Assembly: GCA_964621395.1 (NCBI GenBank) | Contig: CAZULS010000002.1 | Coordinates: 236,252-294,908 of the forward strand | Reading direction: 5' to 3' | Length of the DNA stretch: 58,657 nt | DNA from: an uncultured Candidatus Saccharibacteria bacterium | GTDB taxonomy: Bacteria; Patescibacteriota; Minisyncoccia; Phycocordibacterales; JACNGX01 | Shown here: positions 7,847-47,721 of the stretch, one piece after another | Numbering within the stretch: the stretch's first letter is position 1 | How the letters are laid out: every line of letters starts with the position of its first letter | Translations under genes and position numbers: made by a program | The notes under the pieces: generated by a model | What the model saw: the letters and a program-made list of their open reading frames with translations, nothing else | Database searches by the model: none | What the model was told of the DNA's origin: nothing

Positions 7847-10492
7847 TTACTTCTTAATTCTCTTCTTGAGTTCCTTCTTCAAATATTTTCCCGTGTGTGA
7901 TTTCTCACTCGCAGCTACGTCTTCGGGCGTGCCTTTTGCCACGATGGTACCGCCACCTTCGCCTCCTTCAGGACCCATATCGACGAGAAAGTCGACGGAT
8001 TTAATCACGTCCATATTGTGCTCAATGGTAATCACCGTATTACCGCGCTTCACAAGCTCGTCGAGGATTCCAATCAATTTACGCACGTCTTCATAATGGA
8101 GGCCGACGGTCGGCTCATCGAGAAGATACACCGTCTTCTCCGTATGCGGACGATACAGCTCTGAAGAAATCTTCACGCGCTGCGCTTCCCCACCTGAAAG
8201 CGTCGTTGCCGATTGTCCAAGTTCGAGATATCCCAAGCCCACATCTACCAGCGTCTTCAATCGATCATAAATTGCCGGAATGTCAACGAAAAAGTCGGTT
8301 GCTTCCTCTACCGTCATGGAAAGCACATCGGTAATGCTTTTCTTCTTGTATTTCACCTCCAGTGTCTCTTTATCAAAACGCTTCCCGCCACAGACATCAC
8401 ACGTCACATACACCGTGGGCAAGAAATGCATTTCCACGGCAATGACACCATTTCCCTGGCACGCTTCACAGCGTCCGCCACCGCGCTCATTGGGCACATT
8501 AAATGAGAAGCGCCCGGATTTCCATCCGCGAATACGCGCTTCTTCCGTTGAGGCAAAAAGATCACGGATGTGGGTGAATGCGCCGGTATAGGTTGCCGGA
8601 TTGGAGCGCGGTGTGCGTCCGATGGGCGATTGATCAATCAAAATACTGCGCGAGACATATTCCGCTCCCTCAAATGACGCACAATTGTACACATCATTAC
8701 TGCGATATTTCTTCTCAAAGCGTGCACGAAGATTCTGATACAAAATCTCATGCATGAGCGACGACTTCCCCGATCCGGACACGCCGGTAATTGCCACAAA
8801 GCGCCCGAGCGGAATATCGAGTGAGAGATTTTTAATATTAAAGACCTTCCCACCGCGAATTTTAAGCGCACCTTTATTACTATCCCTGCGCTTCTCGGGC
8901 ACGGGGATGAGTTTTTCACCGCGGAGATATGAAAGGGTCTCTGATTTGGAAGGATTGGTTTTTGCTGAAAGGAGTTTGTCGAGATAGCCGGAAACAACAA
9001 CATCACCCCCGCGCACGCCGGCACCCGGCCCAATATCCACGATATAGTCGGAAGCAAAAATAGTATCTTCATCGTGCTCAACAACGAGAATGGTATTGCC
9101 CAGATCACGGAGATGCTTCAGTGTGTGAATGAGACGGTCATTATCACGCTGATGGAGGCCGATGGTCGGCTCATCAAGCACATACAGCGCACCCACAAGC
9201 TGACTGCCGAGCTGTGAAGCAAGACGAATGCGCTGTGCCTCTCCGCCTGAGAGCGTATTGGCACGGCGATCAAGCGTGAGATAATCCAAGCCTACATCAA
9301 GAAGAAATTGCAGACGATGCTCAATTTCTTTGAGGATGACCTTGGCGATTTCGTGCTCACGTTTGCTCAGCTTGAGCTCAATGAAGAAATCGGCGGCATC
9401 ACGTACCGACATAGCCGTAAGCTCCACGATATTCACCCCTATATCTTTTTTCTTCCCTTTATTTTTATTTGCTGTGCCCGGTTTTGGGTCCCCTAATGTG
9501 ACATGAAGCGCCTCTTGTCGCAGTCTGGCGCCATGGCACACTTCACACAGCTCTGTGCCAAATGCGTATTTCGTCCCCAATCCATTACATGCCGGACACG
9601 CACCATAAGGTGAATTGAATGAAAAGAGGCGTGGCTCAATTTCCGGATACGAAAAGCCATCATGCGGGCAGGCAAAGGTAGCCGAAAGAAGCGTCGTCTT
9701 CTCTCCGATACGGATACGCACCGAACCATCAGATTCCACAAGCGCGCGCTCCACCGCCTCAGCCATGCGTTCGCGTGTCGTTTTAGGGTCGGAATCAAAA
9801 TCAAGGAGATCAATCGTGTCTACCACGACATCAATTTCGTGTTTTTTCGTTTTGGTGAGGGTGATATTGTCGCGCAAACTCTTTTTCTCTCCATCCACGC
9901 GCACATGGGAAAATCCTTTGCCGAGAAGATCATAGAGGAGCTGATAGTGTTCGCCCTTGCGTCCGCGCACCACGGGCGCGCCGAGCTCCACGCCGAGTGA
10001 TTCATATGCCACGCCCATAACCTCTTTCGTATTTTTCTTCGCCTCCTTTTGCGCTGCTTTCACTTCTTTCAAAACAAAATTGATGATTTCATCCGGCGAC
10101 AATCGCTCAATCACCCTGCCACACACAAGACAATGCGGTTTGCCCACACGCGCATACAGCACGCGGAGGTAGTCGTATATTTCTGTGATGGTTGCCACCG
10201 TTGAACGCGGATTATTTGAACGGCTCTTCTGATCAATGGAAATAGCCGGCGAAAGCCCCACAATTTCATCAACATCCGGCTTCTGCATCTGACGAAGAAA
10301 TTGTCGCGCATATGCCGAAAGCGATTCCACATAGCGCCTCTGACCTTCGGCAAAAATCGTATCAAACGCCAAAGACGACTTTCCCGATCCGGAAAGCCCT
10401 GTGAAGACGACCATGGTATTGCGTGGCATTTCCACGGTAATATCCTTGAGATTATGGGTTCGCGCCCCTTTGACGATGATTTTTTCTTCCAT
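7847..10492 (-). CDS. uvrA: excinuclease ABC subunit A
   Basis: 881 aa with two ABC ATPase modules ([26 protein letters not shown] twice) and zinc-finger cysteines. Confidence 0.97.
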
Positions 10493-10840: not shown

Positions 10841-11629
10841 ATGAAAAAACTATTCTCTTTCTTGATTCTGGTTTCGTCTGTCATAATCATCAGTTGCAAT
10901 AAAGTTGAATGGGAGACAACCGTAAGCCCCAAAAATACAACTTACACATACTTCATAACTGAAGATTACAGTGTTGAAATTAAAAAAGATTCCGTAAACA
11001 CTCTTATCTATGTCCGAGACGGAAAACGAGCGGAGCGGATATCTTACTCTCGGGGTCCATTGGGCGAAATTCGTTCACTTCTTCTCTGTACAAGAGAAAA
11101 AGGAGAGCGGTTTGAGGTAAAGTTAAGTGAGAAAAATGATCTTCTTCGTACAAAAAGATTCTTCTCTGTTCTCAAACACGCCCCCGAAGATGTTCGGAAA
11201 ATCATGGACATTTACTATGCGCGTCAGAAATACGGCGCCGGTTTCTGGTATAGAAAAAAGTGGGGTAACGGTGGACGGTATTATCGCTACGAAAAAGAAC
11301 TTCAAGGACACAATGGTAGTGACTTTGTAGCGTACAGTTTTTCCATTGACCCTGACGGTCGGATTAAGATAGACGCTCAACAATATGCCAGCATTCAATA
11401 TATTAGTTTCGCTATTGATGCGGATAATCTGAACTTTCTTCTAGCCGCGGAATATACAGAAAAGAGCGACTTTGCTGGTTTTGGTGAATACCGTTCTTAT
11501 CCCACAAAAGAAACCGATCTACTCATGAAAGAAGAATTCACGGAGGCACTTGAAAAGCTTCCAGAAGAAGCAAATGAGGTTTTAGGCGCATACAAAAAGT
11601 ACCTTGCACTGATGGGGTATGAAGATTGA
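10841..11629 (+). CDS. hypothetical lipoprotein
   Basis: The internal Met start gives MKKLFSFLILVSSVIIISCNK, a lipobox-like signal. TTGACA at 10765 lies upstream. The track ORF begins at 10784. Confidence 0.55.
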   Translation: MKKLFSFLILVSSVIIISCNKVEWETTVSPKNTTYTYFITEDYSVEIKKDSVNTLIYVRDGKRAERISYSRGPLGEIRSLLLCTREKGERFEVKLSEKNDLLRTKRFFSVLKHAPEDVRKIMDIYYARQKYGAGFWYRKKWGNGGRYYRYEKELQGHNGSDFVAYSFSIDPDGRIKIDAQQYASIQYISFAIDADNLNFLLAAEYTEKSDFAGFGEYRSYPTKETDLLMKEEFTEALEKLPEEANEVLGAYKKYLALMGYED

Positions 11630-21952: not shown

Positions 21953-22381
21953 ATGAAAGATTACAAAAATATAATCATTGCGGTGTTGGTTATAGTTTCA
22001 GTGACATTTGGTATACGTCTGTTTACCGGTGATTCGGATACACCAATAGCGACAACACCCGACGCGGTATACAGTGCCGACACGCAATCCGCAGAGTGTA
22101 TCACGGCGGAAGAATCATGGGATCACATAGGTGATTTTATGTGCGTGGAATATTTTGTTGCCAGCCCGTATACGTCCAACAAAGGCAACGTGTTTCTCAA
22201 CGAAAAGAGAGACTACAAAAACGGTTTTACAACCGTCATATTTGCAACATCCGCCAACAACTTCAAAGCACCGGAAAGTACATACGGCTACAAAACAATT
22301 CAAGCAACCGGTTTGATTAAGATGTACCAGGGACATCCCGAGATTATCGCCAATGACCCGTCACAAATTAGAGTAAAATAA
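21953..22381 (+). CDS. hypothetical membrane-anchored protein
   Basis: 142-aa ORF 10 nt after nuc, with an N-terminal TM helix. Confidence 0.5.
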   Translation: MKDYKNIIIAVLVIVSVTFGIRLFTGDSDTPIATTPDAVYSADTQSAECITAEESWDHIGDFMCVEYFVASPYTSNKGNVFLNEKRDYKNGFTTVIFATSANNFKAPESTYGYKTIQATGLIKMYQGHPEIIANDPSQIRVK

Positions 22382-22559
22382 TCGTGCTGCCGGACTAGGA
22401 GTGCTCACTGCTCCCAAGCACCACTTTCGTAAACGAAAGGTGGTGTTCGGTCCGCTCGCGGAACCCACGGTTCCACGGACATCCTCCACGGGGCCGTTCC
22501 GGCGACCCCGACCCCCGACGAGTTCGAGTCCTAGTTCGTCGCTCTCGCTATCGCTCGTG
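22382..22559 (-). ncRNA. variant tRNA-linked element (TLE-E5) with displaced tRNA-Gln 3' copy
   Basis: The 19-nt direct repeat TCGTGCTGCCGGACTAGGA occurs at 22382-22400 and 22555-22573. A hairpin at 22516-22541 presents, in tRNA sense, ACTAGGACTCGAAC, the rc of the T-arm of tRNA-Gln. It shares the ACACCACYTTC/GAAAGTGGTG stem with TLE-E4. Confidence 0.5.
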
Positions 22560-22630
22560 CTGCCGGACTAGGACTCGAACCTAGATTGACGGGACCAAAA
22601 CCCGCTGTCCTACCATTAGACGATCCGGCA
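22560..22630 (-). tRNA. tRNA-Gln (anticodon TTG)
   Basis: Acceptor TGCCGGA/TCCGGCA (U1-A72), anticodon loop TTTTGGT, T-arm CTAGG-TTCGAGT-CCTAG. Confidence 0.9.
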
Positions 22631-22685
22631 ATGTCGTGTCATGATAACACTTTTTTGTGTTTAGTCAAACGGATGCACAAAATCT

Positions 22686-22748
22686 GTCATTCCGGGCTTG
22701 ACCCGGAATCTAGGACAACGATAGATTCTGAATCAAGTTCAGAATGAC
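22686..22748. repeat. convergent doublet of GTCAT hairpins
   Basis: GTCATTCCGGGCTTGACCCGGAATC and, on the rc strand, GTCATTCTGAACTTGATTCAGAATC. Confidence 0.75.
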
Positions 22749-22775
22749 ATAAAAAACACAAATCTCATTACGTTT

Positions 22776-24191: not shown

Positions 24192-24295
24192 GTTAGTGTG
24201 TTATCGAAGTTCTTTATTCTTGTTATCATAAGTAAGATTGTTTGTAAAGCAAATCAAATCAAAAATTCCGCTTGCGCGGAATTTTTGATGTTTTG

Positions 24296-25016
24296 AAGGA
24301 CCATGTCTGTAAGCCGAATTCTGTACGCGCTACGCGCGCGATAATGATTTATCTGGGATGTGTGTTGCCACACACCTCAATGCGGCACTCCGAGCACCAC
24401 TTTTGGTAAAAAATCTTTTTCACCAAAAGTGGTGCTCAGCACGGCCTTGCACACAGGTAAGGATTTAGCCGTTTCACTAAAACATTCGCTTGCGAATGTT
24501 CGTGCGAACATCATGCGCTTCTGCATGATGTTTTAGCACCCGCGTTACCACGGTACTAACCCTGCTCTCCTGAAAAAGAAAAACCGGGTTTCGATTCCTT
24601 TCGGAATACGACGTCTCTGCTCGCACCTCTATAGCCCCTTCAAGCTACCGACGGGCGTTACCCGCTACCCTTTTCCGACACCACTTTCATGTACTTGCTC
24701 TTTAAGAGCCTGTTCATAATCTCATGTCGTGCGTAATGCATCATATACCGAGCGAAAATCGTGAAAAATGACGAAGGAGTACTCTCGTACTTCAAGGCAT
24801 TTTGAGCGATTTGCAGCCGGTATATGATGTGTTAAGCCGACAAGGATATATTGTTCTTCATTCAATGCCGTTGAGATTATGAACAGGCTCTAAGGACGAA
24901 TAACCAACATGCTCGGTATCGCCCCTTCTCTCTGCAACTCCACAAAAGTGGTGTCGGATGTGTTCGGACTTTCCTCTAATGTTTCAAGAAACATCAGCCA
25001 TTACCCAACATGGCGT
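24296..25016 (-). ncRNA. rnpB: RNase P RNA, about 720 nt, expanded by repeat insertions
   Basis: The minus strand carries GAGGAAAGTCCGAACAC (CR-I like, ~24962-24978) and ACAGAATTCGGCTTAC (CR-V like, ~24309-24324), plus GGGTAACGCCCGT. P1-like CCATGT/ACATGG ends are present. A terminator hairpin lies at 24261-24286. Confidence 0.85.
24705..24891 (+). mobile_element. R185 TIR element inserted inside rnpB
   Basis: 20-bp terminal inverted repeats AGAGCCTGTTCATAATCTCA / TGAGATTATGAACAGGCTCT. A near-identical copy lies at 38879-39060. Confidence 0.8.
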
Positions 25017-47414: not shown

Positions 47415-47721
47415 GTCCATCCACCAGTCTCGTCCCACAGTCACTAAGTAAAATGCTCCGGGCACTCGCATTTTACAAAGTGCTACTGGACGCCGAACAC
47501 CACTTTCACTTACAACAAAAGATGGTCACTGCTCGTTAGGAGAAATTCCTAACATTTAATTCACCAATCAAAGTAATCAGTGAAAGTGGTGTTTGGTTCG
47601 ATTCCTGACATGCCACACCTCACATGCAATTTTTCTCAAGCACTATATATTTACAATACCATCGCAGTAAGTCTCTACAAAAGTATTCCGTGTGAGGTGT
47701 GGCATTGTGTCTGGACTAAAG
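47415..47721 (-). ncRNA. tRNA-linked structured element TLE-E4 (after tRNA-Lys) with a nested inverted-repeat hairpin
   Basis: A nested hairpin with ATGCCACACCTCA/TGAGGTGTGGCAT arms lies at 47610-47705. CAGGAATCGAACC is the rc of 47595-47607. Also present are an ACACCACTTTCAC/GTGAAAGTGGTGT stem, a terminal hairpin at 47432-47491, and the tRNA 3' copy CTGGTGGATGGAC (rc of 47415-47427). Confidence 0.65.

Follow-up and report, generated by a model that had tools for sequence, protein, structure and literature searches.

The 154 nucleotides (nt) that lie behind the tRNA-Gln gene in the DNA analysed here are a member of a recurrent non-coding family at tRNA 3′ ends in Patescibacteria, to which we refer as type G. 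This DNA (hereafter the window) is a stretch of 58,657 nt from an uncultured Candidatus Saccharibacteria bacterium (contig CAZULS010000002.1, positions 236,252 to 294,908), in which other tRNA genes are followed by a different set of elements (hereafter the main family). An earlier note on the window had proposed that the tRNA-Gln insert represents a second subfamily, and this proposal holds, as the same 66-nt core recurs at other tRNA loci. Full-text literature searches returned no description of such elements, and no Rfam family matches them. Our preferred reading, though a tentative one, is that the insert is a non-autonomous mobile insertion of the type-G scaffold that targets the T-loop and 3′ end of tRNA genes and has a core that folds on the sense strand.

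On the minus strand lies an intact tRNA-Gln gene (anticodon UUG), assigned to 22559-22630 by ARAGORN and to 22560-22630 by Rfam (RF00005, 59.8 bits), in which CCA is not encoded. The 19-nt sequence TCGTGCTGCCGGACTAGGA occurs exactly twice, at 22382-22400 and 22555-22573, with no other occurrence even at three mismatches and none expected by chance (100 shuffles, up to three mismatches). Read in tRNA sense, it comprises T60, then CCTAG and TCCGGCA as the 3′ strands of the T-stem and acceptor stem, the discriminator G and the trailer CACGA, which is the composition proposed earlier except for the trailer, of 5 nt (4 nt if ARAGORN's tRNA end is used) instead of 3. The distal copy starts right behind the TAA stop codon (22379-22381) of a convergent open reading frame (ORF; 21953-22381), and the 154 nt between the copies are non-coding. 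Within them, a hairpin at 22516-22541 (CGACGA, a 14-nt loop at 22522-22535, TCGTCG) presents the exact complement of the tRNA's GTTCGAGTCCTAGT. This inverted copy of the tRNA-Gln T-arm (hereafter antiT) is exact over 14 nt and extends to 17 nt at 94%. Further in tRNA sense, the insert runs from a 13-nt spacer through the antiT hairpin, a G+C-rich region and a ACACCACC...GGUGCUU hairpin (22416-22447, where the ACACCACCTTTCG/CGAAAGTGGTG stem sits) to the tail GGGAGCAGUGAGCAC. Repeat, tRNA gene and antiT all lie where the earlier note had placed them. The entire 249-nt span is identical across two independent assemblies of one population. Searches against Rfam (at gathering thresholds over the whole window, by E-value over 22300-22700) matched the tRNA only, the rest being microRNA noise at E of 0.04 or above.

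An exact-pattern scan of metagenome contigs with the region of the second core hairpin (P2) gave nine loci, and synteny fetches through homologs of DnaX, which is encoded next to the Gln locus and places the window in Patescibacteria (Parcubacteria) near Candidatus Yonathbacteria, added L004 and L008. According to tRNA calls, the type-G scaffold lies behind tRNA-Gln(UUG) in L034 and L039, and it is also found behind tRNA-Gln(CUG) in L036, tRNA-Tyr in L037, tRNA-Ser in L038 and L040, and, as two tandem units, tRNA-Asp in L041 and L042; no recognisable tRNA was found at the type-G locus of L035. In L008, whose DnaX is 75% identical to that of the window, tRNA-Gln is followed by a terminator hairpin, an exact inverted 3′-end copy of 20-22 nt, the core and a 15-nt direct repeat, and then by a second, degenerate unit. 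The general order in the family is the tRNA 3′ end, usually a bidirectional terminator hairpin, antiT (10-22 nt in the relatives), a purine-rich linker, the first core hairpin (P1), GUGGAGGARGU (GUGGAGGA), P2 and GAGC; these are followed either by a hairpin that we call CACCAC (P3) and GGGAGCAG or by AGCGACG, and, last of all, by a degenerate heptamer ahead of the repeated tRNA 3′ end. Orientation with respect to the tRNA does not vary among loci, and placement on the same strand, directly 3′ of the tRNA and with a direct 3′-end repeat, was found in the window and in L008, L034, L036, L037, L040 and L041, the direct repeats measuring 13-38 nt across elements. Repeat and antiT thus occur together, with the 66-nt core, well beyond the window, at the tRNA-Gln of L008, L034 and L039 and at Gln(CUG), Tyr, Ser and Asp loci. 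The finding that the earlier note had named as refuting its reading, their absence as a pair from other tRNA loci of related genomes, is thereby contradicted. The model of the type-G core (R1) matches the window at 84.8 bits (E 8.5e-22; 22450-22515), on the minus (sense) strand only. The core pattern is absent from the viral contigs scanned.

The copy in the window deviates from its relatives in having the spacer GCGATAGCGAGAG and the CGACGA/TCGTCG stem around antiT instead of a terminator hairpin. Presentation of antiT in a hairpin loop, as described in the earlier note, is peculiar to this copy and no trait of the family; in the relatives antiT comes after the terminator hairpin and makes, together with the tRNA 3′ end, a palindrome that reaches 22 nt, and in one subtype (G2; L036, L038 and L040) it consists of the T-loop complement only. 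The junction had likewise been placed 3-4 nt further 3′ than in the main family. This is only apparent, since a T-loop-like heptamer (TGAGCAC in the window; TGAACAT, TTCGAT or TGAGAT in relatives) precedes the second repeat and the join still falls within the T-loop. Nor is the description of the insert as an older derivative supported, its core being under structural constraint and 94% identical to the copy of the sister genome (L004). Two other identities were considered and dismissed. A miniature inverted-repeat transposable element (MITE) does not apply because the repeats are 13-38 nt of tRNA sequence and the inverted segments are tRNA-specific and not conserved, and a coding reading of the foot of P2 fails because the frame is not conserved and stops after six codons in L034 and L037. 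All type-G copies (window 22457-22490, minus strand) have, 5-6 nt ahead of an ATG or GTG, an invariant GGAGGA, which resembles a ribosome-binding site with its start codon, but the frame is probably non-coding.

The two hairpins of the core are backed by covariation. In P1 and P2, 97.6% of the alignment cells are paired, both-sided changes are seen in 21 cells compared to 6.6 in shuffles (none of 500 shuffles reaches 21), 7 of the 17 pairs are compensatory, and the pairing collapses when the partners are slid by 1-3 columns. Counted from the pair table, there are 16 G:U cells versus 2 A:C cells, and R1 has no antisense match in the related loci searched, which together suggest that it is the tRNA-sense strand that folds, either as RNA or as single-stranded DNA. 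For four copies, minimum-energy folds predict a four-way junction made up of P1, P2, P3 and a closing helix of antiT with the distal repeat, the outer 12 base pairs (bp) of which would mirror the acceptor and T stems of the neighbouring tRNA.

Relationships among the cores do not follow the identity of the tRNA. The core of the window (Gln) is 94% identical to that of L004 (Gln), 81% to that of one L041 unit (L041b, Asp) and 71% to that of L034 (Gln); the L034 core is 91% identical to that of L037 (Tyr), and the cores of L036 (Gln-CUG) and L040 (Ser) share 92%. As the repeat and antiT of each type-G copy nonetheless match the local tRNA, the scaffold seems to move and its ends to be re-matched. 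Tandem units are present in L034, L040 and L041, and the two units behind tRNA-Asp in L041 are only 75% identical, which argues against a recent tandem duplication. The tRNA-Gln of L007, whose DnaX is 88% identical to that of the window, carries no element at all. In addition, the 24-nt terminator spacer between proximal repeat and antiT has opposite orientations in L008 (5100-5140) and L039 (about 11085-11120), two loci of the same species, suggesting that the inverted arms recombine or are re-synthesised.

Seven of the eight tRNA genes of the window have an element behind them, six of the main scaffold (complete or partial) and, at tRNA-Gln, one of type G. The main family has copies at tRNA-Lys, Leu-UAG, Leu-UAA and Pro-GGG and partial ones at Pro-CGG and Cys; the covariance model of its 3′ module (R2) scores 75-91 bits on the first four and in the same range on the tRNA-Thr copies of L041, with antisense scores of 25-30 bits. 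On the Gln element R2 reaches 9.7 bits at most (22300-22700, filters off) and so does not recognise this copy, and R1 has no match elsewhere in the window. The main 3′ module, CGUCCAG-hairpin(AAUGCGAG)-GUGGGACGA, is not present in the Gln element, and AATRCGAG is not found in its 154 nt, in agreement with the earlier observation that the AATRC hairpin core is lacking there. Intermediates between the two scaffolds, which the earlier note had suggested looking for, were not seen either, R1 and R2 revealing no hybrid copies in 134-246 kilobases (kb) of related loci each. Both scaffolds occur together in this genome and in L041. What they have in common is the architecture recognised in the earlier note, i.e., the tRNA 3′ end, an inverted T-arm copy, a structured module and a direct 3′-end copy: both lie behind the tRNA in the same orientation, with a direct 3′-end repeat that starts from the T-loop and a sense-strand-biased module, and both form tandem arrays. 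The modules themselves (CGUCCAG...AAUGCGAG...GUGGGACGA in the main family, P1-GUGGAGGA-P2 in type G), however, are unrelated in sequence. The existence of at least two unrelated scaffolds with one architecture points to a constraint from the mechanism, not to common descent. Most tRNA genes in this window of a small-genome bacterium thus carry a structured passenger with a direct and an inverted copy of their own end, and such repeated tRNA 3′ ends and palindromes can mislead tRNA annotation and the calling of genomic-island boundaries. A third type of module, longer at about 250 nt, is seen behind tRNA-Met in L041 (4410-4740, minus strand); it shares the architecture, with a direct repeat of 21 nt, a terminator, and a hairpin that divides its antiT.

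On the reading as a mobile insertion, the insert would enter at the T-loop and leave the tRNA gene with a complete 3′ end, while a second copy of this end would lie on its far side, the two copies making up the direct repeat. Its core of two hairpins would fold on the tRNA-sense strand, as RNA or single-stranded DNA, with antiT at its 5′ flank and the direct 3′-end copy at its 3′ flank. In a single-stranded form, antiT and the distal copy could close a four-way junction mimicking the acceptor/T-stem helix, and antiT and the proximal copy could form a long palindrome; either way, the pairing of antiT would tie each copy to its own tRNA. The enzyme would act in trans. We infer such an enzyme, the insertion by recombination or copying at the T-loop, and the manner in which the ends are re-matched. 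In favour of a non-autonomous element, Pfam matched no recombinase, transposase or reverse transcriptase in 20 ORFs of the window (19 of the 24 ORFs of at least 230 amino acids, plus the 142-amino-acid neighbour), of which 3 matched no family and the others have housekeeping functions (uvrABC, tgt, serS, topA, relA, parB, miaA, infB, gyrA and dprA); tblastn with the recombinase found in L004 (see below) detected no homolog anywhere in the window.

Several points weigh against this interpretation. The two assemblies of the population yielded neither an empty site nor a joint or circular variant. The family is linked to no enzyme, so that mobility is argued from its distribution only. Insertion by a recombinase would require a separate re-matching of the direct and the inverted copies, and none of the standard mechanisms suffices alone. 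Moreover, conservation of the terminator by the proximal repeat tracks neither the scaffold nor the distal terminator, and no simple model fits this. The covariation comes from 10 distinct core sequences of few clades, and the closing helix is not universal, given the G2 subtype with its T-loop complement only. Finally, the element is in no RNA run, and the metatranscriptome contigs with related cores could represent DNA. Snap-back copying at the native terminator would explain the palindrome, and was rejected on account of the difference between the proximal and distal terminators.

It is also conceivable, although we regard it as rather unlikely, that these are programmable elements of a nucleic-acid-guided or -templated kind, in which base pairing lets antiT pick out a tRNA gene, or prime on the tRNA, and antiT is rewritten from the new target with each move. 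If this were true, a single small non-coding scaffold would be able to spread to any tRNA with no need of a sequence-specific protein for every site, and the same principle would be at work in two independent scaffolds, type G and that of the main family. An inverted copy acting as guide or primer site would then amount to a new, compact way of targeting DNA insertion to conserved safe sites.

Chance, or a slippage duplication behind the tRNA with no family to it, has only the small size of the element to recommend it and is already refuted, as no chance match of the 19-mer is expected, unrelated contigs have the core (E of about 1e-21) behind five kinds of tRNA, and its hairpins covary. The sense-strand covariation with its G:U bias, together with the constant orientation, would also suit a resident functional non-coding RNA, tRNA-like and read through or co-transcribed with the tRNA, whose closing helix copies the acceptor/T-stem for maturation by end processing, or whose antiT binds the T-arm to regulate maturation. 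So would the predicted four-way junction closed by a mimic of the acceptor/T-stem, the 94% identity between the copies of the window and L004, the joint presence of two scaffolds behind seven of the eight window tRNAs, and the related cores in metatranscriptome assemblies. We nevertheless consider it an unlikely explanation, since a terminator usually stands between tRNA and antiT, antiT also pairs with the discriminator and the trailer or CCA (which would leave no free NCCA end), L007 has no element, the tandem arrays are in decay, core lineages cut across tRNA identity, and no RNA run contains the element of the window. The P1 region comes in many variants in the wastewater metatranscriptome contigs, which carry no strand information and might derive from DNA. 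Should the RNA have a function, a new class of tRNA-linked RNA would be added to a phylum with poorly known RNA biology. A retroelement-like or templated-copy element, in which antiT is the primer-binding site for the tRNA 3′ end and is renewed by copying the primer tRNA, and in which the direct repeats are terminal repeats or target duplications of variable length, would explain by this renewal why antiT matches the local tRNA and why ends are re-matched in spite of shuffled cores. It is consistent with the complementarity of antiT to the terminal 14-22 nt of the tRNA as far as the T-loop, sometimes including CCA (the Cys copy of the window, the Thr copies of L041, and L008), with the division of several antiT copies into an acceptor part and a T-arm part, with the range of repeat lengths (13-38 nt) and with the spacer flipped between L008 and L039. 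This explanation is decidedly improbable, however: no reverse transcriptase is found in the window (within the scope of the Pfam scan given above) or beside any copy, no antiT contains the complement of a CCA that the tRNA gene does not encode, so that it need not derive from mature tRNA, and a palindrome at the DNA level explains the same features. Long terminal repeat (LTR) retroelements (e.g., retroviruses, Ty1/Ty3 and Tf1) prime from a tRNA 3′ end at a primer-binding site, which resembles antiT in its complementarity to the tRNA 3′ end and its place beside a terminal repeat, and the CTX phage and integron attC sites share with it an inverted copy of the site that lets a single strand fold into a duplex substrate; type G, in contrast to all of these, is linked to no reverse transcriptase or tyrosine recombinase. 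Bacteria are not known to harbour a tRNA-primed retroelement, and none of the LTR, CTX or attC systems targets bacterial tRNA T-loops with a non-coding element of about 150 nt.

The insert could also be the recombinase-less remnant, or a miniature, of an integrative element with a large serine recombinase specific for the 3′ end of tRNA-Gln, with the repeats as attL and attR, antiT as an inverted half-site, and the gene lost from the copy in the window. No recombinase gene lies between the repeats there, whereas in L004, with a DnaX 96% identical to that of the window, such a gene is present in the ortholog: it encodes a 493-amino-acid protein with Resolvase, Recombinase and Zn_ribbon domains and is flanked by 133 orthologous nt (93% identity) and by the 16-nt repeats. 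At least 15 loci have a member of this recombinase family abutting the 3′ end of tRNA-Gln, and more distant members are adjacent to tRNA-Asn and tRNA-Ser. The cassettes that carry it have the tRNA 3′ end on one side and a degenerate inverted copy of this end on the other, which is the place that the terminator hairpin has in the small elements. The islands of Dehalococcoides, inserted in the T-loop of ssrA by the CcrB-family serine recombinase DsiB with 3′-end repeats of about 20 bp, are the nearest documented precedent for T-loop insertion of this kind (PMC3146451). By analogy, they resemble type G in the use of the T-loop of a tRNA-like gene, in an element-derived motif just upstream of the repeat and in their tandem arrays, and they differ in being kilobases long, with their own recombinase and cargo, and in having neither an inverted copy of the target nor a structured core (PMC3146451). 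Still, the R1 core is present in only one (L004) of about 20 recombinase loci, and a recombinase lies within only one of about 10 type-G loci, with one that is 33% identical about 4 kb away in L035. Most cassettes have no second repeat and no matching antiT, and their junctions fit a 2-bp GC crossover at the discriminator, whereas that of type G is in the T-loop. The cassette of L004 lacks the far flank conserved in other cassettes, as would be expected of a nested, truncated guest, and in L017 a small element stands between the tRNA and the cassette, implying independent events. Type G is also found at Tyr, Asp and Ser, and strand-biased G:U covariation is not expected of double-stranded recombinase sites. 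All this makes a recombinase-derived origin quite unlikely. Tyrosine-integrase elements that target tRNA genes, for which Williams in 2002 reportedly described a T-loop sublocation, have integrase-less derivatives, known as cis-mobilisable elements. Like type G, they share with the tRNA a block of identity from the T-loop to just past its 3′ end, leave the tRNA complete and accrete in tandem; unlike them, type G has only 154 nt, a conserved folded core and an inverted copy of the target, and uses one scaffold at many tRNAs, the ends being matched anew at each.

The recombinase was accordingly demoted from its candidacy as mobiliser of type G, as the core occurs only in L004 among the recombinase loci, the far flank is missing there and the events in L017 are separate; the L004 cassette has most likely nested there, in truncated form, as a guest at a hot spot common to both. 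Its recombinase gene is bracketed by inverted repeats of about 95 bp, and the cassette is truncated on one side. Similar cassettes of about 1.8 kb, each with a large serine recombinase and inverted repeats of 95-135 bp, are abundant (L004 4227-5876; L010-L033 and L043-L045) and are inserted, in either orientation, at the discriminator or CCA of tRNA-Gln (of tRNA-Asn or tRNA-Ser in relatives). They are often located at contig ends or make up whole contigs of 1.8-2.5 kb. In L018 the inverted repeats are perfect over about 130 bp. The non-coding far flank of the cassettes is conserved across genomes and holds a degenerate inverted tRNA end.

Table 1. Parts of the tRNA-Gln locus and its type-G element in the window (DR1 and DR2, proximal and distal copies of the direct repeat).
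Feature	Position	Strand	Basis
tRNA-Gln (UUG)	22559-22630	-	ARAGORN; Rfam RF00005
DR1, proximal 19-nt repeat copy, part of the functional tRNA and its trailer	22555-22573	-	sequence repeat
Spacer GCGATAGCGAGAG from DR1 to the antiT hairpin; position of the terminator in most relatives	22542-22554	-	sequence, comparison with relatives
antiT hairpin, stem CGACGA/TCGTCG, loop ACTAGGACTCGAAC (22522-22535), the reverse complement of T-loop and 3′ T-stem	22516-22541	-	inverted match
Type-G core: GGGG, P1 (about 22489-22510), GUGGAGGAUGU, P2 (22457-22477, invariant GGAACC-GUG-GGUUCC), GAGCGGAC	22450-22515	-	model R1
P3, optional CACCAC hairpin AACACCACCUUUCG-UUUA-CGAAAGUGGUGCUU	22416-22447	-	inverted match; recurs elsewhere
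Conserved 3′ tail GGGAGCAG and degenerate T-loop-like heptamer UGAGCAC, abutting DR2	22401-22415	-	alignment
DR2, distal 19-nt repeat copy, abutting the stop codon of ORF 21953-22381	22382-22400	-	sequence repeat

A stem shared by the Gln and Lys elements had been taken in the earlier note for a sign of homology. Related stems do exist in the Lys element (47498-47591), but shared ancestry does not follow, since the same hairpin, GAGCACCACUUU...AAAGUGGUGCUC, also stands in the RNase P RNA gene 2 kb away (24391-24440), where it aligns to P16/P17, and it is therefore no marker that links the two elements. CACCAC is an independently recurring hairpin module: it is present in the type-G copies of L004, L037 and L041, in the Lys element, and in the RNase P RNA of the window and of L004, while the RNase P RNA of L034 has, in another helix, a variant with a large insert. 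A second CACCAC hairpin in the RNase P RNA of the window encloses about 260 nt (24677...24950). In the form (GAG)CACCACTTT...AAAGTGGTG(CTC), the hairpin was noted at 24391-24440, 22416-22447 and 47498-47591 of the window, at 1541-1580 of L004 and at about 11890-11960 of L034, its hosts being RNase P RNA (P16/P17; the P12 region in L034), type G and the main-type element at Lys. Its loop sometimes has a large insert, and it has the look of a hairpin, mobile or modular, of genes for structured RNAs. The gene for RNase P RNA itself (24294-24990, minus strand) matches RF00010 at 59.6 bits against a gathering threshold of 100 (E 1.4e-17), a low score apparently due to insertions, and its CR-I motif GAGGAAAGTCCGAAC begins at 24976.

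A few further observations concern the family and its surroundings. In each of the wastewater metatranscriptome runs X23-X26, 6-8 distinct contigs share the type-G linker and P1 with L041 (3511-3562) and diverge at P2, which suggests that a larger superfamily exists. L034 has, at 8860-8945, a filler of 38 nt and behind it about 50 nt of tRNA-Gln in partial duplicate, starting in the anticodon stem, and upstream of tRNA-Ser (1910-1999) in L040, on the minus strand, there is a copy of tRNA-Ser interrupted inside the T-loop. Between dnaX and tRNA-Gln, the window has a MITE-like palindromic repeat, gtcattccgggcttgacccggaat...attctgaatcaagttcagaatgac (22680-22750), whose depth in two source runs is 4-9 times that of its flanks, and a relative of this repeat is located upstream of the tRNA-Gln of L007 (about 2588-2650).

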